Position numbers and translations under genes: made by a program. From positions 1 through 59,407 of the forward strand of contig JBBRFA010000004.1 of NCBI GenBank assembly GCA_038225185.1: 59,407 nucleotides of DNA, in the 5' to 3' direction. This stretch comes from Chthoniobacterales bacterium. GTDB lineage: Bacteria; Verrucomicrobiota; Verrucomicrobiia; Chthoniobacterales; DASVRZ01. The notes under the pieces were generated by a model. That model had not been told where the DNA came from. It worked only from the letters and a program-made list of their open reading frames with translations, and ran no database searches. Shown here piece by piece: positions 5,304 to 48,891 of this stretch (positions are counted from its first letter, which is position 1; each line of letters begins with the position of its first letter).

Positions 5304-6514
5304 GCAGTCACCTCCGAAGCGGGTTCGATCTCGATGGCATCCTTGCTTGGAGCGCCCAGCATACGAATGCGGCGTTCGCCAAAAGGCAGGCGTATGGTAA
5401 TCGTAAGTCCCTTGCCCTCATGACTTTCCAACTCAATTTCCCCGCCATGTTCGCGCACGATCCGTCGCACGATGAGCAGTCCCAGGCCGCTGCCGCCTTC
5501 CTTGGTAGTAAAATAAGGCTGAAAAATCCGACTCATGTTTTCCGCCGAAATACCACCGCCAGTGTCCGAAAAACTGATCGCCACATGTTCCTCCCCTCGC
5601 AAACTGCGAATGTGAAGGATGCCGCCGGTTTTCATGGCTTGGAAACTATTTTTAATGAGGTTGTAAATCGCTTGTTTGATTTGATTTTTATCCACTTCGA
5701 GGAGAGGTAATTCCCCGGCAAGATCGGTCTCCACCAACACGTCGCGATCATCGATTTCACGGGCCAAAAATGAGACGGACTCCTGGATAATGGCATTGAT
5801 GTCCTCGCGTTGCACCTGAGGTTGCGTGGGGCGGATGGCTCGTAAAAATTGATTGACGATATAATCAAGGCGTTTGATTTCTTCCTGGGCGATGGCGACC
5901 GATTCTTCGAGCAGCGGACGCTGTTTTGACTCCAGTTTGCGAATGCGACGCTCCATCAGTTGAAGGTGGATGTGAAGAGAGTTGAGTGGATTACCGATTT
6001 CGTGCGCGACTCCGGCGGCCAGCAGGGTAAGGGCCGAAAAACGCTCAGTTTCCAGTGATTCCTCAGTGGACCGTCGGGTCTCGGTGATGTCGCGCAGGAT
6101 GACTGCGTAACCATGCTCTTCTTTCGAATAAGATGAATGTTCCTCCGCCTCGTCCAGATTAAATGGAACCACGTAAAAATTGATGAATCGATTTTGCGGG
6201 TAAAAAATCTCCATGTCGCGACTGATCACCCGATCCGACTGGGATAATCCCCGCCAATCCAGCCCACGCACACGATCTGTCAGTAATTCGCCAATGTCCG
6301 ACACTGCATCCAATCCACACAAGGCGCAGGCGGCTTGATTCAAGTATAAAATACGACTGGAGGAATCGGTGACAATCACGCCTTCTTGCAAGGCGTTGAA
6401 GATGCGCTCGAAAAATCCTTTTTCCTGCGCCAACCGCAGAATGTAGCTCTGCACCGCCTCGGGTTCGACCCGATGCAAACGATCCAGTAGTTTATCGAGG
6501 AAGCCTGGTTTCAT
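5300..6514 (-). CDS. PAS-domain sensor histidine kinase (NtrB/AtoS-like)
   Basis: H-box AHEIGNPLNSL plus HATPase_c motifs (NLIKNSFQA, DTGGGI, GSGLGL). It is translationally coupled to the downstream response regulator. Confidence 0.9.
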   Translation of the reverse strand: MKPGFLDKLLDRLHRVEPEAVQSYILRLAQEKGFFERIFNALQEGVIVTDSSSRILYLNQAACALCGLDAVSDIGELLTDRVRGLDWRGLSQSDRVISRDMEIFYPQNRFINFYVVPFNLDEAEEHSSYSKEEHGYAVILRDITETRRSTEESLETERFSALTLLAAGVAHEIGNPLNSLHIHLQLMERRIRKLESKQRPLLEESVAIAQEEIKRLDYIVNQFLRAIRPTQPQVQREDINAIIQESVSFLAREIDDRDVLVETDLAGELPLLEVDKNQIKQAIYNLIKNSFQAMKTGGILHIRSLRGEEHVAISFSDTGGGISAENMSRIFQPYFTTKEGGSGLGLLIVRRIVREHGGEIELESHEGKGLTITIRLPFGERRIRMLGAPSKDAIEIEPASEVTA

Positions 6515-11979: not shown

Positions 11980-12141
11980 TGGTTATTCGGGAAATTCAGG
12001 GATAAACAAATTTTTTGGCGGCCTCGCACTAACATTTTAAAAAGCTATGCTCTTTCGTGCCCTTTTACCGACAGGAACTATTTCGGTAAGTTTATAGCTT
12101 GTCATCTAATAAATGAAGTCATGCGTGGTCGCGGTGCGGTT

Positions 12142-14718
<2,577 letters not shown>

Positions 14719-21467: not shown

Positions 21468-22367
21468 TCAACTGCCGTCCCACGATTTTTTAGGAGAATT
21501 CATTTGCTCGCCCTGACCTTCTGAAAAAGGTCGTTTAGTGAGATCTGAAGTTATAATTTTTTTTAATCGATCTGTCCAGTCGTCAAACGCTTGATCTCTT
21601 TGTGCCTTTGTAGGCAAAGCCGGCAAAATTTTGCGTCGGCCAGTAATATCTTGAAGAGCGGATTCAGCAGCAGACCATACAGCTTCCTCATCGTCCGTTA
21701 ACATCTTGACAATTTCTGGTAGTGATGAGCGATCTCTGTATTTTCCGAGCACAAGCAGTGCGTCACGACGCACGACCACATCGGGCGAGTTCAAGGCCGC
21801 AATGGTGCCGACAAGCAAGCTCATCTCATTAAATACTTCTTCAGTAAGAATAGTAGTGTTTATAAGGATATCCAAAGCAGTTCTTTGATCCATAAGATCG
21901 CCATTTAGCAGAGACACTAATATCTGACCTTTCTCCTCAAGATTTGCAACAGATTGAATATTAAGAATCTTTGAGATTCTCTCCTGATTGGCCGCATATT
22001 CGGTAGGCTTGAAATTAAGAACGCCCTGCCAGCCATGACACAGACGATAGTCTCCCTCCACGGAGGCTTCCAAAAAGAGGATCACAGTCCCGTCAATCAC
22101 CGATTTCACCGAAGGAGATTCAGTGGTCCTTGAGTAATTTTCGTAAAAATGCAATTGGAGGGTGTTGGCGGAAAATTGCCCTTTAATCACGTCTTTCACA
22201 TAAAACTTCATCTCCGTGGGAGATTTCGATTCTACGGAGACGGCACCTATAACGAGATCTGCTTTCAACGATTTTTCATAGTCAGAATATAGAATCTCGC
22301 GAGCATCCGCAAAGGTGAGGCATAAACAGGCTTCGATAACCAGTATGACAAATTTCGTGCATTTCAT
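21468..22367 (-). CDS. secreted HEAT-repeat (PBS-lyase HEAT-like) protein
   Basis: Signal peptide MKCTKFVILVIEACLCLTFADA. The C-terminal half has HEAT-like repeats (SPDVVVRRDALLVLGKYRDRSSLPEIVKMLTDDEEAVWSAAESAL). It is visibly more AT-rich than the core genes. Confidence 0.65.
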   Translation of the reverse strand: MKCTKFVILVIEACLCLTFADAREILYSDYEKSLKADLVIGAVSVESKSPTEMKFYVKDVIKGQFSANTLQLHFYENYSRTTESPSVKSVIDGTVILFLEASVEGDYRLCHGWQGVLNFKPTEYAANQERISKILNIQSVANLEEKGQILVSLLNGDLMDQRTALDILINTTILTEEVFNEMSLLVGTIAALNSPDVVVRRDALLVLGKYRDRSSLPEIVKMLTDDEEAVWSAAESALQDITGRRKILPALPTKAQRDQAFDDWTDRLKKIITSDLTKRPFSEGQGEQMNSPKKSWDGS

Positions 22368-22417
22368 AGGTCAGTCATTGTAATTAAGTGTTTTAGGCTG
22401 TCGGCCAGGATTACGAA

Positions 22418-22567
22418 TCAGAGCCAGCGTGCATGTCCTGTGATGACGTCTCCGCGCAAATCCAAGACCTCTTGTAACCGTCGCAACGGATGATCTTCCG
22501 GTATCCGACGAGCCAGATTAAACGGCTCACACCACAACTCATCTTGTCTGCTATGTAATCTTATCAT
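22418..22567 (-). mobile_element. remnant of an IS5/IS1182-type transposase N-terminus (DUF772-like), truncated after 49 codons
   Basis: Hand translation gives MIRLHSRQDELWCEPFNLARRIPEDHPLRRLQEVLDLRGDVITGHARWL*. The motif IPEDHPLRR...VLDL is the conserved InsH/IS5-family N-terminal signature. No DDE domain follows. Confidence 0.5.
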
Positions 22568-22768
22568 GGAAATCACTTCTAACATTTAACCATGCCTAAT
22601 CAAGCAATTTGGGCAACAGGCCGATCCTGACTTATCCCGAAAGCTTCTCGCACGCAAAAAATCTTCATCATCTTTTCAATTCGCTCCCGGAGTCGGAAAT
22701 TAGCCGATATTCTTTTGTTTTCGTATCGCAAATTAAAATAGTTGGTGATTCACTATTGATTTGATTTT

Positions 22769-23038
22769 TTAGTAAAAAGGATCATCTTTCTCATGAAAAA
22801 ATAACTGTTTAATTTGTAGCAAACGTCCAAGAATGGATCCAGAAGGGATAGTTATACTTCTGCTTCCCTGCGTTTTAACTCGCTTTAGTTTAGCTGGGTC
22901 CATTCGTATTATGCAGTGGCCTTCATCGATCGAGATGGTTGTCGCATTATTTAAAACCTCTTCGATTCCGATCCAGACTGTAATAGGAGTCGCATGGATG
23001 ACGAAGGCTCTGCCTTGAATCACAAAAATTCCTACCAA
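22769..23038 (-). CDS. small hypothetical ORF (TTG start), doubtful
   Basis: 89 codons, open directly after the 229-aa gene with a 7-nt overlap. It has no recognisable motif and a non-ATG start. Confidence 0.25.
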   Translation of the reverse strand: MVGIFVIQGRAFVIHATPITVWIGIEEVLNNATTISIDEGHCIIRMDPAKLKRVKTQGSRSITIPSGSILGRLLQIKQLFFHEKDDPFY

Positions 23039-23721
23039 TCTATGATGATTTTTTCGAATTTATATGTTTTAGAATCCATCTTGGAACTCTTAACTTGGCC
23101 ATCAGAAAAGGAGACCTGCACTAGGATTTTTTGTTCGTTTTCCAAATTGAATGTCTTGATCTCTGCTTTCCGTGCAAATAAGTGTGATGCAGAACTGTCC
23201 CTGAAAATTTGCTGGACCACCACTTCACTGGAATGGCCGTTAGAGACTTGATACGATAAAACACTCGTCCAAAGGTTATTCCAAAAAACCATATAAAGGC
23301 GGCCATCAATAATTGTAGAGTTGAGGACGGTAGGCTTAGCCAGAGTATTCGATTCTATTCTCTTTCGCAGGTTTTCAAGACTCTTGGCATCGCGCTCAGG
23401 ATCCTTCGATGCCCGAGGTAAGCTTTGCATATTAGTTATGGGGATCAATTTTGCTCCAATCCCGATGTACTCTGAGTGAAAACTGATTGCTTTAGCACCA
23501 GCTCTCATCCAAAGAAAAAAAAGCTCCGGGTAAAAGCCTCCAATATTACTTGCAAATTCACCTTCAATCGTGGTTTTTAATCGTTCCACAACAATCAAAG
23601 TTCCTGCGCCATCGTAATTTTTAGAAAAGACAATGATGTCAGTATCTTCCTTTGCGTGCATCTCAGGGATGATACTGATCAGGAGAGTTAATATTGTATA
23701 TATTGCTAGATATTTTTTCAT
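23032..23721 (-). CDS. AT-rich signal-peptide protein of unknown function (candidate immunity or partner protein)
   Basis: 229 aa with signal peptide MKKYLAIYTILTLLISIIPEMHA. Its ATG overlaps (ATGA) the stop of the orphan C-terminal fragment upstream. Confidence 0.65.
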   Translation of the reverse strand: MKKYLAIYTILTLLISIIPEMHAKEDTDIIVFSKNYDGAGTLIVVERLKTTIEGEFASNIGGFYPELFFLWMRAGAKAISFHSEYIGIGAKLIPITNMQSLPRASKDPERDAKSLENLRKRIESNTLAKPTVLNSTIIDGRLYMVFWNNLWTSVLSYQVSNGHSSEVVVQQIFRDSSASHLFARKAEIKTFNLENEQKILVQVSFSDGQVKSSKMDSKTYKFEKIIIDW

Positions 23722-24074
23722 GGAATAAAAACGGTTTCTTGAACACCTTTGGTATCTGGGGTTGAGCCTATTACTGGATCACCGTGATGAAATTGGGTCA
23801 GTGCGGAATTTTCCCATGCGATTTCGCTCAAGTAAGTTTCGCCATAAGATGGGTCGTAAATCACCCCGCCATAGCGGACAACAGCATGGTCTCGAAACGA
23901 ATTTTGTGGAGCATCTGGGCCTTGCCCAGGGAGACTGGGATCTACCTCAAAGCCCTTTGCGGCACTAGGCCCCGAGCCAAAGTCGTGTGTTTTATTGGGA
24001 TTAATCTGAGTTAATATAGAGCTAATTCCCTGTGCTTTTAATATATCAACAATGTAAATAAAAAGACCTGTCTC
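23718..24074 (-). pseudogene. orphan C-terminal fragment paralogous to the C-terminus of the 637-aa protein; it has no start codon and lacks the Cys motif
   Basis: Hand translation gives ETGLFIYIVDILKAQGISSILTQINPNKTHDFGSGPSAAKGFEVDPSLPGQGPDAPQNSFRDHAVVRYGGVIYDPSYGETYLSEIAWENSALTQFHHGDPVIGSTPDTKGVQETVFIP*. This aligns with ...ARFLQAIIKTHGI...FDDHGVTTYAGMIYDPSYGKSFENLLEWQRNALDSVSFHD of ORF 25357..27270. The frame has no Met. Confidence 0.6.
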
Positions 24075-24081
24075 TTAGTTT

Positions 24082-24312
24082 TCACTGATAGTCGATTTCT
24101 TTGTAGGTCCCCGTTTCATCCACCGTCAGGTGCAGTGTGGCTGTCACATTTTTTGCAAGCTCTGGCGTCGTCCAGGATTTCTTGGGCTCTGATGGAGAGA
24201 TCGTCATGCTCTCCTCGAAGGAGGCTTTTGCATTGGAGGCCATTGAGAGCAAGCCTGCTGTCACTGGAATTATGCAATATGCAAGCTGCTTTGGCAGTGG
24301 AAGTCGTTTCAT
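24082..24312 (-). pseudogene. N-terminal fragment (signal peptide plus about 50 aa) paralogous to the N-terminus of the 637-aa protein
   Basis: MKRLPLPKQLAYCIIPVTAGLLSMASNAKASFEESMTISPSEPKKSWTTPELAKNVTATLHLTVDETGTYKEIDYQ* compares with ...ASGQAFGITAAENLSGQIEISPLTPMASWPNSS...NYTATISVTVVREQQVGEVNYKL. It stops 7 nt before the frame of the C-terminal fragment opens. Confidence 0.5.
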
Positions 24313-24728
24313 TTTGTGGGTGGCGTATTGCGGGCAGTTGAGCAATAAAAAGGCGATGGTCCAGAGAGGCGGTGGAGTGGGTTAAAAAATCCTGCAACCA
24401 CCGGCTGGCAATGAGATTGTCGGAGGGATTGGAGTGCGGGCAGATCAGGGAGAGCGAAGCAAAAGCCATGGTATCGAGCCACTTCGAGCGGAGTGAGGAG
24501 GATTCCATGGACAACGCATGGTTGTTGATGGACTCTAACTATCAATATCAGGGAACGCAGACCATTTCCAATAAATACACCACCGAAGCACTGATAACCA
24601 CCGCTATCCCACACATGTTCAACTACCAGCCGGAGTGGAGTGAAGACTATTGGGGCTGGGGCTATTACGACTGGGATAACTGGTTGCTAGCTTTCACAAA
24701 ATTTACCCTCAATCCCCTTCTCCTCCGG

Positions 24729-25343
24729 CTATTCGACATGATCAGTCAACTTTTCCAAGTTATAATTAGATGTCACACGCCACACTCGTATTCCGCCTGG
24801 ATCGAGTTCGATGGTCGCACGCACTTCTCCATTAACGACCGCAAGATTTGCATCTTCGATTAAAGAAAACGCATTCGTCTCTGCAAGAAAGAATTCCTGA
24901 GACTTAGGTAGACTTGGTAAATCAGAGAGCATTGGCATAAGAACCAAATGCGTCTTGGATGTCGAATAGAGAAGCATCGCGAGATTTTGTTTTACTAAAA
25001 GGCCATTAATTTTAACCTCGGCTTGCGAGCCCGGAGTTGCGTCGATCTCTGTCTTCCAGAGTATGATCTGCAATCCATCAGAAGAGCGAAGCTTTACAGA
25101 TAATGTTCTAAATGATCGAGGAATACGATGTATACCTTCATCCTCTGCTTCATGTTGACTTTTTTCAGAAACTGGGCTTGTAGTTGGCATGCCGAGTGTA
25201 ACTAGTATTTTTCTTCCCTCTTGAGTAATATCCATTTCCCTAAGAATAGTTACGCCATCGGAGTGCTCAGCACAAGAGCTGTAAGTCAGGAAAATATTTG
25301 TAATCGCGATTATACAACTAAGGCTAAGTCGGGGATATTTCAT
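24729..25343 (-). CDS. AT-rich probable lipoprotein of unknown function (candidate immunity or partner of the upstream 637-aa protein)
   Basis: 204 aa. MKYPRLSLSCIIAITNIFLTYSSC has a lipobox-like SSC. It starts 13 nt after the stop of the 637-aa gene. Confidence 0.65.
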   Translation of the reverse strand: MKYPRLSLSCIIAITNIFLTYSSCAEHSDGVTILREMDITQEGRKILVTLGMPTTSPVSEKSQHEAEDEGIHRIPRSFRTLSVKLRSSDGLQIILWKTEIDATPGSQAEVKINGLLVKQNLAMLLYSTSKTHLVLMPMLSDLPSLPKSQEFFLAETNAFSLIEDANLAVVNGEVRATIELDPGGIRVWRVTSNYNLEKLTDHVE

Positions 25344-25356
25344 AATTTTTAAAATT

Positions 25357-27270
25357 TTAAGGTTCTATAATTCCGTATTCGACAAGCTGTTGCCATGATT
25401 GTCCTGAATTGCTGTAAAATATTAACTGTTGGCTATCATGAAAGCTGACGGAATCTAAAGCATTTCGCTGCCATTCCAATAAATTTTCGAAGGATTTACC
25501 ATAGGAAGGGTCGTAGATCATCCCGGCATAAGTAGTAACCCCGTGATCGTCAAAAACAGATTTAGAAGGATTGGAAGAGCCTTGTCCTGCAATACCATTG
25601 ATTGGAACGGGAAGGCCAGGAGGTGATGCGGTTAAAGGTCCAAGATCTTGATTTTTCACCCAAATCTGATGACCTTGCAAGCCGCTGTTTGGCGGGGGTG
25701 AAGGAATGACTTGCCGTGCCTCAACGCCTCGAATTCCGTGCGTCTTAATGATGGCTTGTAGAAAACGCGCCCATGCACCGCAGCGACCGTCACCGTCAGC
25801 TAAAAGCTTAGCTACCGTAGATGATACATTGGAATTATATGGCGTCCGATAATAGTAAAGAGATTGTAAGGGTCCTACCATGCCGGGTGGGCGGGCGGGC
25901 AACACTGTCGGAAATCCAGAACTTGGAGCCACAAAATCACTCCATATCGACGCGACTATACCGGCTTCTGTTGTTTGTCCATTAGAATTCCGGCACCCCA
26001 CGTCGACAAGAGTGTGAAATAGAGGAGAAAAGCCCGGAGTACCGTGCGTAACGTAGAACTGGTTATTACTTTTGCCGACCTCCACCCATTCGTTCACGTC
26101 ACGAAAGCTGGCTTCAAAGGTCAATACAAAATCATCCTCCCAGTAACGCACTTTTCCCTTTTCAAAATTCGCAGAAGCCTCTGCGGCACTGGCTAGATCG
26201 ACCTTGTCTCCGCTCACTTGGGTATTGACTTCTGCGATGGAGATCGAATCCGGTCCGGTTACTTTGATTTTGAGGTCAACTCCAGCGACGACGGGTTCAA
26301 GTTTCCACTCCGGTAATATCGTCAGTTTGGTGTCGCTGATATACGCCACCGGGTGAGCGTGACCATCCGAAGAAGTGCCGTCCCCGTCAGGGTCGTTCCA
26401 GTGCGGTGCGGTGTAGTTGGTGCCGCCATTATCGGAACTAATTTCGCGGTTGCCGGATCCCGAGAACCCCACTTTGACCAATTTGATTTTAATGAATGCA
26501 ATTTCCACCGACGAGATTCGTTCTTCGGCGCTGCCGTCGTTGTAAGTCATTTTGACTTTGCCTTTGGAGGGGGTGGAACTTGTGATATTTGCAGCAAAAG
26601 TCCATCGCGGAGCTCCGGCGGTATTTGCCACCGTAATAATCTCCCATCCGGGATTTGCGGGGTGGGCATCCGTCGCTGTAAACTCGGTAAAGGTCCAGTT
26701 TTCAAGACCGAAGCCGTTTGTGTCGGTCACGGTCACCTCATAGCCAATCTCTTTCTGCCCGTCGGCCCACTGGCGGGTGCGATCGAAATCCCAGTTCACC
26801 ACCGAATCAAGCAGTTGCACGGCGGCATCGGCTTGCCCGGCGATGACCCCAGGGCCGGGGTCCTGGCCACTGCCACTTCTAACTTCCGGAGACCAAACAC
26901 AGGTAAGTGTCATGGTCGCGCTGGCGGTATCTGCCGCCGTGTTGGTGATACTGTAGGTGGTGCCGCTCGTGGTCCAGGCCACATTCGAATCGCTGCTGCC
27001 AGTGGTGGCATCCGGGCCGCTGGAAAGCTTGTAGTTAACCTCGCCAACCTGTTGTTCCCTAACTACAGTCACACTAATGGTGGCGGTGTAGTTAGGTGCG
27101 AGGGCGTTGGATAAGCTAGAGTTTGGCCAGCTTGCCATGGGTGTCAACGGGCTGATTTCGATCTGGCCGCTGAGGTTTTCGGCAGCCGTGATGCCAAAGG
27201 CCTGCCCGCTGGCGAGGATGCCGCAGAGCAGGGCGGCGAAGATAGGCTTGATGTGGTGGTGATGGTTCAT
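25357..27270 (-). CDS. large secreted protein with beta-rich/Ig-like N-terminal two-thirds and a C-terminal candidate transglutaminase/papain-like Cys-His-Asp domain
   Basis: 637 aa with signal peptide MNHHHHIKPIFAALLCGILASGQAFG and a DPDGDG Ca-binding-like loop. The C-terminal motifs are DGDGRCGAWARFLQAIIKTHGIRGVEAR (Cys codon at 25780..25782) and FDDHGVTTYAGMIYDPSYG. The His-to-Asp spacing is 11 residues, and the orphan fragment has the same spacing. Confidence 0.8.
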   Translation of the reverse strand: MNHHHHIKPIFAALLCGILASGQAFGITAAENLSGQIEISPLTPMASWPNSSLSNALAPNYTATISVTVVREQQVGEVNYKLSSGPDATTGSSDSNVAWTTSGTTYSITNTAADTASATMTLTCVWSPEVRSGSGQDPGPGVIAGQADAAVQLLDSVVNWDFDRTRQWADGQKEIGYEVTVTDTNGFGLENWTFTEFTATDAHPANPGWEIITVANTAGAPRWTFAANITSSTPSKGKVKMTYNDGSAEERISSVEIAFIKIKLVKVGFSGSGNREISSDNGGTNYTAPHWNDPDGDGTSSDGHAHPVAYISDTKLTILPEWKLEPVVAGVDLKIKVTGPDSISIAEVNTQVSGDKVDLASAAEASANFEKGKVRYWEDDFVLTFEASFRDVNEWVEVGKSNNQFYVTHGTPGFSPLFHTLVDVGCRNSNGQTTEAGIVASIWSDFVAPSSGFPTVLPARPPGMVGPLQSLYYYRTPYNSNVSSTVAKLLADGDGRCGAWARFLQAIIKTHGIRGVEARQVIPSPPPNSGLQGHQIWVKNQDLGPLTASPPGLPVPINGIAGQGSSNPSKSVFDDHGVTTYAGMIYDPSYGKSFENLLEWQRNALDSVSFHDSQQLIFYSNSGQSWQQLVEYGIIEP

Positions 27271-27272
27271 GG

Positions 27273-28349
27273 TTACTCGTTTGGGTTGGTGCTCCGGGAT
27301 TCCAACAACTGCGCCATCAAAATCGTATGGTCGAGGTCGGAATGCTGCAGGTTTCTATAATAGTTTTGGGTTACGACGCGAAAGCGGTCATCTTCGGGGC
27401 TGAGGGCGCCGGATTCAACCAGCACGTCAAGTAGGGCGAGGACTTCTCGGGCGGCTTCCCGGTTTCCGTGGCCGACTTGGCGAACGAAAAACTGTATATG
27501 AAGGAAGCGGACATCCTGGGCGGTCGCTTTGGGGTGCTGCTTTTTCCACCATGCGAGAATGGTGCCAGCACGTTCGGCATGGCCTATCGAATGCATGTGC
27601 AAGGCATGGCGTGATACCAGGGAGGTGCGCCGATCGAGCGGGGTAGAAGAGTCGGCGAGGTAATCGAAGATCCATTGTTCGCCAACTTTCCTGGATTCGA
27701 AGCTCGAATCTTTTCCGGTGAGCGACATAGCGTAGTCGCTGCGGTTTTTGAGCCACCAGGAAGGAAGTTGACCCTGCGGATCGGCGAGCCACCCGATCTC
27801 GAATTTCTCCATCCACGGAAGCAGGGTGTCGTGCTGCTCCTGCACCCACAGACGGAGGATGGGGGCGGCAAGGGCGGCGGTGGCTTTGGCGACGTGCTCG
27901 TGCGGTAGTCGGGAGGATCTCTCTAGAAGACGCGGCTGCAATAGCCCGAACTCCTGCCATGCAGGTTCGAAACTTTGCCACTCCAGCATGATGCGGAGGG
28001 TAAAGACATCTTTGAAAATCGAGGTCCAAGAGGTGATGAGTGGTGCTACGTCAGGCTGATCGACGGGTAAGGAGTCCAGCCAGTCAAGCAGGCCCGTAGA
28101 GAGGTTTTGCAGGGTATCAATTGTGGGAGCGGGAATGGCATCACGTGGCGCGAAGCGAACTCTCCATGCTTGGGGGACGTCGGCGATCAATGCGCGGTGT
28201 TGCTTTCGGAATGCCTCCAGCGATTCGCGCGGAGTTGCGACGGGTGACTGTGATGGGGTGGCACTCGGCGGTGCACCAGATTCCGACGCCCACGCCAAGA
28301 CCGGCAAGAGCGCAAGAATCAGAATACAAAAGGCGTGGGCTGGCTTCAT
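27273..28349 (-). CDS. secreted alpha-helical protein of unknown function
   Basis: Internal ATG at 28349 gives the signal peptide MKPAHAFCILILALLPVLAWA. This ATG overlaps (ATGA) the stop of the TPR gene. The gene stops 2 nt before the start of the 637-aa gene. Confidence 0.7.
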   Translation of the reverse strand: MKPAHAFCILILALLPVLAWASESGAPPSATPSQSPVATPRESLEAFRKQHRALIADVPQAWRVRFAPRDAIPAPTIDTLQNLSTGLLDWLDSLPVDQPDVAPLITSWTSIFKDVFTLRIMLEWQSFEPAWQEFGLLQPRLLERSSRLPHEHVAKATAALAAPILRLWVQEQHDTLLPWMEKFEIGWLADPQGQLPSWWLKNRSDYAMSLTGKDSSFESRKVGEQWIFDYLADSSTPLDRRTSLVSRHALHMHSIGHAERAGTILAWWKKQHPKATAQDVRFLHIQFFVRQVGHGNREAAREVLALLDVLVESGALSPEDDRFRVVTQNYYRNLQHSDLDHTILMAQLLESRSTNPNE

Positions 28350-29467
28350 GGGGTGGATGCCTGGGAAGGGTTCGCAAGGCCATCTGCCACTTCTTCCATG
28401 TAGCGCACAATAGGCGGATGGCTGCCTTTGGCCGGGTAATAGCGCACCAGATCCTCGAAAGCGGATTTTGCCTGACCCCACTGCTTGTGTGTGCGCAGGA
28501 GCCAGGCCCTGGTATAGAGTGCTTGTTCGTGGCGGAATGAGTCGGAAGGGAAGTCTCTTGCGATAGCGGCGCACATTTCAACGGCCTTTTGCCATTCACG
28601 CTTGGGTCCGGCATGGAGTTGGACGAGATGCCAGCGACTTTGCCCGCCCCACTCGCTCTTGGGTTCCTGCGAGGCGATGGTGGTCCAAATTTTTTCCGCT
28701 TCGACGAGGTTGACGGGACCGCCCACCGAGTAAAGGCACCACGCATATTTCACACGGGCTTCGGCGATGGTCGCGGGGTTCGTCCCCTGCTTGGAAACGA
28801 TTTCGTAAAGGTTCATGGCCAGATCTCGCCGGTTATTCTTCAACGCTCTGTTGGCTGCTTCGAGCAGACGGGCTGGATCGCCACCGGATTCGATGATGGT
28901 TTTGGCGGATTCGAACTGTTCCTTGGCTGGCCCGCGCAGGGATGCTGACAGCCTTTCGTAAATGACAAGTGCTTCCTTGAATTGTCGGGCCTGGTAATGG
29001 CGATCTGCAACGACAGACCAAACCCTGAGAGTGGTCGGACTTTCGGAAAAATCCCGAAGAAGGGTATCTCGCGCCTGCTGCGCCCTGGTGCGGTTGCCAC
29101 GAGCCTCGTGGAGCTTGGCGGTTTCCTCCAACGCTTTTGCGGCCCATTCGGTGTCACGGGCAGCGGTGATAACCGCGCTGAAGTTGCGGAACGCTTCATC
29201 CACCTGCCCCTGGCGGGCCTGAATCTGGCCGAGGAGAAAACGGGCTTCGATAACCTCGGGAGTTGTGGCGTTTGATCGGATAAAGGATGAAAGAAGTTTC
29301 AGAGCCTCTTCGTCGTTTTTGGCTTTGATGGCGACTTTGGCCGCTTCAACGGGATGGACTTGCAGACTATTTTCGGCGAATCCTTCGGTAGTGAAGAAAA
29401 AGCAACCAGCCAGGATAGCTATTGCAGCCCGTGCGGCAGTAAAACTTTGACTATAAAGCCTTTGCAC
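28346..29467 (-). CDS. secreted TPR-repeat protein; first gene of the minus-strand cluster
   Basis: 373 aa with a GTG start at 29467 and a signal-peptide-like N-terminus (QRLYSQSFTAARAAIAILAGCFFFTTEGFA). It contains repeated TPR-like helical hairpins (EARFLLGQIQARQGQVDEAFRNF, EETAKLHEARGNRTRAQQARDTLL and others). Confidence 0.75.
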   Translation of the reverse strand: MQRLYSQSFTAARAAIAILAGCFFFTTEGFAENSLQVHPVEAAKVAIKAKNDEEALKLLSSFIRSNATTPEVIEARFLLGQIQARQGQVDEAFRNFSAVITAARDTEWAAKALEETAKLHEARGNRTRAQQARDTLLRDFSESPTTLRVWSVVADRHYQARQFKEALVIYERLSASLRGPAKEQFESAKTIIESGGDPARLLEAANRALKNNRRDLAMNLYEIVSKQGTNPATIAEARVKYAWCLYSVGGPVNLVEAEKIWTTIASQEPKSEWGGQSRWHLVQLHAGPKREWQKAVEMCAAIARDFPSDSFRHEQALYTRAWLLRTHKQWGQAKSAFEDLVRYYPAKGSHPPIVRYMEEVADGLANPSQASTP

Positions 29468-29473
29468 TTGCTT

Positions 29474-29557
29474 GTGAGCTGTGAGCTGTGAGCTGTAAGC
29501 TGTGAGCTGTGAGCTGTGAGCTGTGAGCTGTGAGCTGTAAGCTGTAAGCTGTGAGCT
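29474..29557. repeat. 12 tandem copies of a heptanucleotide (GTGAGCT x9, GTAAGCT x3)
   Basis: Counted directly: units start at 29474 and recur every 7 nt through 29557, and units 4, 10 and 11 are GTAAGCT. The array ends 6 nt upstream of the GTG start of the TPR gene (minus strand). Confidence 0.97.
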
Positions 29558-29575
29558 GATTTAATCATATTTAAA

Positions 29576-29605
29576 GTTATTGTGGTATTGTAAGTGATGT
29601 GTCAA
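29576..29605 (-). promoter_or_regulatory. candidate sigma-70-type promoter for the TPR-led cluster
   Basis: On the minus strand there is a consensus TTGACA (29605..29600), an 18-nt spacer, then AATAAC (29581..29576). This places the heptamer array in the 5' leader. It is a pattern match only. Confidence 0.2.

Positions 29606-45051: not shown

Positions 45052-45055
<4 letters not shown>
43976..45055 (+). CDS. metH: methionine synthase homocysteine-binding (S-methyltransferase) module, encoded as a separate ORF
   Basis: [18 protein letters not shown] and [11 protein letters not shown] (Zn-ligand cysteines). It ends ...[12 protein letters not shown], and its TGA overlaps the next ATG. Confidence 0.88.

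Positions 45056-48891
<3,836 letters not shown>

Follow-up and report, generated by a model that had tools for sequence, protein, structure and literature searches.

A heptanucleotide repeat array at the 5' end of an exported-protein operon in Verrucomicrobiota, a candidate slipped-strand contingency switch

We analyzed a tandem repeat in a 59,407-nucleotide (nt) stretch of DNA from a Chthoniobacterales bacterium (contig JBBRFA010000004.1, assembly GCA_038225185.1); the whole stretch is called the window here. The repeat lies in the leader of a gene for a tetratricopeptide repeat (TPR) lipoprotein, the first gene of a tightly packed cluster that encodes exported proteins. We found repeat arrays in the same position in ten orthologous Verrucomicrobiota leaders. 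Heptanucleotide simple sequence repeat contingency loci are known as a class, and what is new is this conserved position. We give roughly even chances to the window array being a slipped-strand contingency switch similar to that of neuO, which would be out of frame in the 12-unit allele seen here.

RESULTS

The array and its surroundings in the window

An earlier note on this DNA, made from the sequence alone, had described 12 copies of a 7-nt unit at 29474..29557. Both Tandem Repeats Finder (TRF) and our own reading of the sequence gave the same 12 units. TRF reported a single strong array at 29473..29558, with a period of 7, 12.3 copies, 94% matches, and a score of 151. On the minus strand, from 29557 to 29474, the units are AGCTCAC, two AGCTTAC, five AGCTCAC, one AGCTTAC, and three AGCTCAC. 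The array contains no stop codon and no ATG, GTG, or TTG in any sense frame. The note had also proposed looking for the heptamer at other loci. Within the window, two- and three-unit patterns match this array only. The three-unit pattern (at most 2 mismatches) gave 10 matches, all of them inside the array, and 0 matches in 100 dinucleotide-preserving shuffles. We concluded that the array is real and non-random. The features of the leader are the following.

29474..29557, minus strand: heptanucleotide tandem array, nine AGCTCAC and three AGCTTAC units (TRF and unit list)
29419..29568, minus strand: upstream open reading frame (ORF) of 49 amino acids (aa), with its start ATG at 29568..29566, 11 nt before the array, in frame +2 relative to the GTG of the TPR gene
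29600..29605, minus strand: TTGACA box, -35-like (sequence; TTGAC occurs in all 12 leaders that have upstream sequence)
29576..29582, minus strand: putative weak -10-like region, CAATAA (17-nt spacer) or AATAAC (18 nt), placed by its spacing from the box

The start codons and frames were as the note had given them. GTG 29467 lies 6 nt (aagcaa) past the array and is both the first and the sole canonical start of the 373-aa TPR ORF. Translation from ATG 29568 yields the identical 49-aa peptide, which crosses the array and stops 49 nt into the TPR ORF. The distance from ATG to GTG is 101 nt, and the two codons are in frame at 10, 13, or 16 units. We also found the TTGACA box where the note had put it, at 29605..29600. 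The predicted -35 and -10 elements are both upstream of the array, and their spacing, read as that of a sigma70-type promoter, would place the transcription start at ATG 29568 or within a few nucleotides of it.

TTGACA is under-represented in the window: about 14.5 copies per strand would be expected, and the two strands have 9 and 3. Of the intergenic regions upstream of genes in the window, the TPR leader alone contains it. A promoter scan also proposed an internal promoter, CTCACA-17-TATAGT. We rejected this candidate because its transcript would begin past the only start codon and could not express the lipoprotein. Only 3 of the 36 likely ORF starts in the window have a Shine-Dalgarno (SD)-like motif, and most start with ATGA. 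The organism hardly uses SD sites. A search of the leader against Rfam gave no match at an E value of ≤1, and a known RNA family is thus unsupported. Within the 59 kb we did not find one heptamer placed before many genes, which is the pattern of the TAACTGA repeats discussed below.

Arrays in orthologous leaders

We collected every reachable leader of a TPR ortholog. The TPR protein has few homologs, and the relatives are Chthoniobacterales, Akkermansiaceae, and Verrucomicrobia metagenome-assembled genomes (MAGs). We found an array in the same interval, between the TTGAC box and the TPR start, in ten lineages of Verrucomicrobiota with 39 to 75% protein identity. Identities below are to the window protein.

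L002, 75% identity: GGCTCAC, 5.1 copies
L006, 73% identity: RGCTCAC-type array, 4.9 copies
L151: RGCTCAC-type array, 4.6 copies
L003, 69% identity: RGCTCAC-type array, 4.0 copies
L004, 59% identity: RGCTCAC-type array, 4.9 copies
L001 (Chthoniobacterales MAG), 46% identity: RGCTCAC-type array, 13.9 copies
L007 and L008, 46% and 45% identity: AGCTCAC, 5.4 and 3.4 copies, respectively
L009 (same as L010), 39% identity: AGCTACC, 7.3 copies
L005, 47% identity: 13-mer CTCTCGTCCGACT, 4.7 copies

The leaders thus carry three unit types (RGCTCAC, AGCTACC, and the 13-mer), with lengths of 7, 7, and 13 nt, none of which is divisible by 3, and copy numbers range from 2 to 14. Read off the sequences, all are free of stops in every sense frame. 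As in contingency loci, the non-triplet units lie within the 5' coding region or between the promoter and the start codon. In the leader alignment, the array is the only well-conserved stretch, and the flanks have diverged beyond alignment. The automatic alignment misplaced the promoter boxes, and we therefore used a manual register for boxes and start codons.

The note had proposed counting units in relatives. L007 and L008 share 98.3% identity over 2.9 kb, and their unit counts differ by exactly 2. The sequence of two near-identical contigs, L147 (gene 2 99% identical) and L148 (89%), breaks off within the TPR gene and does not reach the leader.

We found no array in L141 and L143 (Akkermansiaceae, 53 to 54% identity), L144 (49%), L145 and L146, or the distant orthologs L011 to L017. 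The loci with an array formed three clades in a rough tree. This suggests that the array either is old and was lost several times or was gained more than once.

Several relatives showed other peculiarities at or near this locus. In L145 and L146 (700..1500), an insertion sequence (DDE_Tnp_1) precedes the gene by 21 nt, and the first 30 nt of the gene contain AATTCTC x 2.6. The TPR gene of L006 is split at about 1624 by an in-frame stop codon (TAG in place of AAG), and the TPR frame of L001 (125..2402) is open for 759 codons, possibly as a fusion with gene 2. Two further heptamer arrays were found in the 4.2-Mb relative L005. AAGTTTA x 5.9 (5704..5744) precedes the TPR promoter box by about 110 nt, and CAATCCC x 4.7 (12124..12156) lies inside a called M3 peptidase gene.

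Start codons and reading frames

In each of the 12 leaders with upstream sequence, a start codon comes 33 to 39 nt after TTGAC(A/T/C/G); L001 is outside this count because its contig begins 23 nt before its array. In the array-less L141, L143, and L144, this promoter-proximal codon is the annotated TPR start. The layout of L144, for instance, is TTGACA-17-TTTATG-7-GTG. Such box-to-codon spacing is what would be expected of a leaderless mRNA. In array-bearing leaders, 11 to 23 nt separate the promoter-proximal codon from the array.

Eight lineages have a GTG as the upstream codon and an ATG followed by a normal signal peptide 4 to 13 nt past the array (17 nt in L005). Within this group, L002, L003, and L151 have GTGAACGCA in common. 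Only the window and L009/L010 have ATG as the upstream codon, and these are the lineages that lack an ATG past the array. In L009/L010, the TPR frame past the array lacks ATG, GTG, and TTG altogether, and one additional unit would fuse the upstream ATG to the TPR ORF, as it would in the window. The neuO layout, in which the array separates the start codon from the remainder of the ORF, therefore fits the window and L009/L010, whereas the other eight lineages have the post-array ATG. The upstream start and the TPR ORF share a frame in L006, L151, and L005 but not in the window, L001, L002, L003, L004, L007, or L009.

The downstream operon

The note had called the downstream genes a secreted-protein cluster, which we found to be a fair description. 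The TPR protein has the lipobox AILAGC, and the next ORFs have signal-peptide-like N termini. The genes are as follows.

28346..29467, minus strand: gene 1, TPR lipoprotein, 373 aa, GTG start, lipobox AILAGC, first gene of the operon
27273..28349, minus strand: gene 2, 358 aa, signal peptide; its ATG overlaps the TPR stop (ATGA), and it adjoins the TPR gene in relatives too
25357..27270, minus strand: gene 3, 637 aa, signal peptide, starting 2 nt past the gene 2 stop
24729..25343, minus strand: gene 4, 204 aa, signal-peptide-like N terminus, 13 nt past gene 3

In Pfam and NCBIfam, the TPR protein gave YbgF/CpoB- and BamD-like matches below the family cutoffs and is otherwise a generic TPR protein. 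Neither database gave a family match for genes 2 to 4, and the PDB contains no sequence relatives of genes 2 and 3. Gene 3 has a beta-rich N-terminal half with subthreshold matches to Big_1 and Transglut_core; its AlphaFold model (mean pLDDT, 49.7) was too poor for a fold search. A gene of similar size occupies the position of gene 4 in some relatives. The lipobox and the signal peptides downstream place the products among surface or secreted proteins, the class that contingency loci typically serve.

The ATGA overlap between genes 1 and 2 is weakened as evidence of coupling because most window genes begin with ATGA anyway. We also considered a link to mutL, which lies directly upstream of the TPR leader on the same strand. 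We rejected it because the upstream neighbors differ in every relative and mutL is not conserved there. Loops of 7 nt are poor substrates for mismatch repair.

G+C content is 0.43 to 0.46 over 22000..26000 of the window, compared with about 0.55 elsewhere. The low-G+C region covers small signal-peptide ORFs 3' of gene 3 (24729..25343, 23032..23721, and 21468..22367). These ORFs may have been acquired separately from the conserved three-gene core.

Proposed operation of the switch

The contingency reading that we favor treats the array as a hypermutable simple sequence repeat kept at the 5' end of a Verrucomicrobiota exported-protein operon. Transcription would begin about 30 nt past TTGACA, at or adjoining ATG 29568. 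Ribosomes would load at this ATG as on a leaderless or near-leaderless mRNA, in an organism that hardly uses SD sites, and would then traverse the array, where no frame is closed by a stop. Slipped-strand mispairing would add or remove 7-nt units, and each step would rotate the frame between the ATG and the TPR ORF. At 10, 13, or 16 units, the ATG would be fused to the ORF, and the product would carry an N-terminal (AHSSQLT)n extension before its lipoprotein signal peptide, as in neuO. Initiation at the upstream start in an array carrier would yield peptides such as MIKSAHSLQLTAH... With the 12 units of the assembly, the upstream ORF would overrun the GTG and stop 49 nt into the gene, leaving expression off or low. 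The packing of the operon suggests that a switch at gene 1 would spread downstream, with the ATGA overlap and the 2-nt gap passing its state to the next genes.

The conserved position, labile count, non-triplet units, and replacement of units all fit a contingency locus, as do the exported products and the tight operon. We favored the neuO-like arrangement for the window because its upstream ATG is paired with a downstream start that is GTG only.

Heptamer arrays elsewhere

We scanned genomes for (RGCTCAC)x4 and for a composition-matched control, (RCCTCAG)x4. Each was found at at least 120 loci in many phyla. We therefore rejected the idea that the abundance of RGCTCAC marks it as a special cross-phylum element; with the control equally abundant, abundance is uninformative. 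Among the arrays listed outside Streptococcus, only a promoter-abutting position was specific to RGCTCAC, and there was no excess of ATG just upstream of RGCTCAC arrays among those matches. The control matches listed had no TTGAC at a promoter-like distance. The control arrays (L152 to L271) occur several per genome in Thermoanaerobaculaceae, Thermoleophilaceae, and Acidobacteriota MAGs, among the matches listed. Those before gene starts mostly read CTGAGGY, which contains the SD motif GAGG.

The promoter-abutting arrays were found in Acidobacteriota (CP065003.1 loci L031, L053, L062, and L099; Aridibacter), Synergistales, Treponema, and Gemmatimonadaceae, 1 to 2 nt after a TTGACA-17-TATAAT-like promoter. 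Such loci (L031, L053, L062, L099, L046, L030, L136, L082, and L120) read CTCAC(AGCTCAC)n, with 4 to 28 units. The Acidobacteriota arrays extend to the ATG of recR, purA, or an mtnC-like gene, and the CP065003.1 promoters are also preceded by opposite-sense heptamers, (GGTGAGC/GGTAAGC)n. At L130 (4580..4730), a contig of a Verrucomicrobiaceae MAG ends within at least 16 AGCTCAC units that start 13 nt after an ATG (ATGATATTGAAAC). Its layout is that of the window, and its flanks are unrelated.

In about 20 genomes of oral Streptococcus (mitis, oralis, cristatus, and related species; among L024 to L132), we observed an SD-led short ORF, MNAIT(AHSSQLT)n, with 5 to 38 AGCTCAC units; an example is L095 5134..5366 on the minus strand. 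Two of its frames stop at once, and the third runs for about 100 nt and ends a few nucleotides from the ATG of the next long gene. Its stop is a TGA overlapping the downstream ATG in 6 of 9 loci. The gene after the array resembles a type III mod gene in several genomes and is different in others. A promoter-like site, TTGACA-17-TACATAAT, faces the array on the opposite strand. These arrays look like a portable phase switch that would act by translational coupling. A literature search found no paper describing the MNAIT(AHSSQLT)n layout in Streptococcus.

The window itself holds another heptamer array, CTCTCAA x 4.1 at 48300..48375 on the plus strand. It lies in frame in the C-terminal domain of a metH-like ORF (45052..48891). 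Two reverse-complement TTGAGAG copies precede it, which makes it a hairpin-capable coding insert.

DISCUSSION

Weighing the explanations

The phase-variation reading of the earlier note thus stood in part. The position kept in orthologs, the labile counts, and the non-triplet, stop-free units support it; the fusion of an upstream start to the TPR ORF is not general, and the ortholog frames look random. The last two points and several other observations count against a switch. With 3 of 10 lineages in frame, the frame states match the chance expectation. A post-array ATG with a normal signal peptide in 8 of 10 lineages means that upstream-start fusion cannot be the general mechanism. The longest pure run in the window array is 5 units, and its three variant units should lower slippage. 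The -10 elements are weak, and a consensus promoter scan did not flag the region at 29576..29582. The in-frame product would carry about 36 extra residues before a lipoprotein signal peptide, which is unusual. L009 and L010, which are 99.98% identical and come from two samples, have equal unit counts, and the orthologs L141, L143, L144, and L145 do without an array. Finally, an exact lookup of the window TPR protein found no second contig, and this protein is thus present on a single contig only.

A variant of the contingency reading is an upstream-ORF switch with three states. According to this model, which we consider unlikely, the upstream ORF would, by unit count modulo 3, fuse to the lipoprotein ORF, terminate at the TGA of ATGA for coupled reinitiation, or overrun and block the start. 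It would load ribosomes at a leaderless-like codon in bacteria that lack SD sites. We retained it because oral streptococci show the same design independently, in a layout that resembles a phase-variable switch based on translational coupling.

The main and serious rival, a real possibility if not a probable one, is a 5'-untranslated-region (5'-UTR) element that works independently of frame. We take it seriously because the ortholog frames look random and most orthologs have an ATG right after the array. In this explanation, a C/A-rich, start- and stop-free (RGCUCAC)n tract abutting the start codon would serve as an SD-independent landing or standby platform for ribosomes or would provide sites for an RNA- or DNA-binding regulator. 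The number of units would be at most a graded volume control, as at hmw1A/hmw2A. In 8 of 10 orthologs, an ATG that leads into a normal signal peptide lies 4 to 13 nt past the end of the array. The unit sequence is kept across deep divergence, and the organism lacks SD sites. In other phyla, RGCTCAC arrays directly follow canonical TTGACA-17-TATAAT promoters, and in Acidobacteriota (CP065003.1 and Aridibacter) they abut the ATG of housekeeping genes, and no start codon lies upstream of them; the composition-matched control heptamer has no such promoter association. The Beggiatoaceae TAACTGA repeats (PMC4679880) and the hmw 7-bp repeats (PMC2651432) are precedents. However, the window and L009/L010 have no ATG past the array, and replacement of the unit by the unrelated AGCTACC or 13-mer argues against a sequence-specific binding partner. 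The single array in the 59-kb window gives no sign of a regulon, and the leader has no Rfam match.

It is quite unlikely, in our judgment, that the array is a neutral microsatellite, a self-propagating product of slippage that is tolerated in the permissive, poorly conserved region between the start codon and the signal-peptide core and has no regulatory role. The apparently random frame states would fit this, as would the several array-less orthologs without visible damage. Heptamer arrays are also common in many soil and sediment phyla, as the similar yields of RGCTCAC x4 and RCCTCAG x4 illustrate, and the metH-like gene of the window has a second one in frame. A neutral repeat does not readily account for arrays at the same interval of about 100 nt in 10 species-level lineages whose flanks have diverged beyond alignment or for three unrelated units at one place. 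Moreover, besides the leader arrays, TRF gave only three period-7 tracts of ≥3.4 copies across the window, L001 to L020, and L141 to L146.

We rejected a hairpin that masks the start codon, which is very improbable. Here, the last unit (GGCUCA) would pair with AUGAGCC, the array would supply alternative anti-start partners, and translation would be repressed. L001 to L004 do start with ATGAGCC, L002 has the perfect palindrome GGCTCAT-caac-ATGAGCC, and predicted folds pair the start codon of L001 to L004 (probability unpaired, 0.12 to 0.34). The pairing is missing in the window, L006, L151, L007/L008, and L009, and among these the window, L007/L008, and L009 have a probability unpaired of about 0.5. 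Genes that start with ATGAGC are common in this genome anyway, and one unit would suffice for the pairing, which leaves the tandem array unexplained. An assembly artifact, in which the assembler made the array or its length, is hardly credible. Contigs of relatives do end at an array or close to it (L001 begins 23 nt ahead of its array, and L130 breaks off within one), and short-read counts of long arrays are uncertain. Nevertheless, the three interspersed variant units give the window array a unique internal order, its 84 nt fit within a read length, and independent assemblies of relatives carry arrays at the same place.

Implications

Most known contingency loci come from host-adapted pathogens, and comparisons of them usually stay within one species. 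The arrays described here are non-triplet repeats kept at one operon position across genus- to order-level divergence in uncultured Verrucomicrobiota, with the unit replaced in some lineages. If the contingency reading is true, this would be a sign that mutability itself has been under long-term selection in free-living or environmental bacteria. The upstream-ORF model, if true, would show how a repeat switch can operate without SD sites. The candidate switched operon consists of the TPR lipoprotein and two conserved exported proteins that have no known domain assigned above threshold.

Comparison with known systems

The closest comparison is neuO, the O-acetyltransferase gene of the CUS-3 prophage of Escherichia coli K1. 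Its variable-number tandem repeat, (5'-AAGACTC-3')n, ranges from 3 to 53 units; the gene is ON when the count is a multiple of 3 and not otherwise, and 65.6% of genomes have it OFF (PMC13001214). A heptanucleotide tract after a start codon can thus switch by frame, with most sequenced genomes OFF (PMC13001214). Like the window array, the neuO repeat has a 7-nt unit, is open in all frames, and closely follows a start codon near the 5' end of its gene; it is translated as a 7-residue peptide repeat, which would be AHSSQLT in the window. In contrast to the cytoplasmic enzyme NeuO, the window product is an exported lipoprotein, and the extension would precede its signal peptide. The window and its orthologs also have a second possible start past the array (GTG in the window and ATG in most orthologs). 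The units are unrelated, and the window locus, known from sequence alone, belongs to an environmental verrucomicrobium rather than a pathogen prophage.

Other heptanucleotide tracts share parts of this arrangement. In Haemophilus influenzae, hmw1A/hmw2A have 7-bp repeats and HI1369 has (AACAACC)n (PMC2651432). These also precede genes for adhesins or outer membrane proteins and differ in copy number from strain to strain. Some strains have the HI1369 tract 13 bp ahead of the gene, and others have it within the ORF (PMC2651432), and the same upstream-versus-intragenic ambiguity is found among the TPR orthologs. The hmw tracts, however, lie about 70 to 100 bp upstream in the promoter region and act by graded transcription, with transcript falling as the count rises, whereas the TPR-leader array lies past the predicted promoter, with 4 to 13 nt between its end and a start codon. 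The type III mod genes of phasevarions have a heptanucleotide CAGCGAC[n] tract in Shiga toxin-producing E. coli (PMC5909438). They likewise have a 5' repeat tract after the start codon whose length varies among strains (PMC5909438), but mod belongs to another gene class, and its repeat is inside the annotated ORF.

The TAACTGA heptamer repeats of marine Beggiatoaceae, Cyanobacteria, and Bacteroidetes lie a few nucleotides before start codons, and a translational role has been proposed for them (PMC4679880). They are a single fixed heptamer used genome-wide, with 169 sets in one genome, mostly of 2 to 6 copies. In contrast, the window has one locus per 59 kb, and its orthologs use different units. 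What they share with the TPR-leader arrays is the placement of heptamer repeats near start codons in genomes with few SD sites (PMC4679880).

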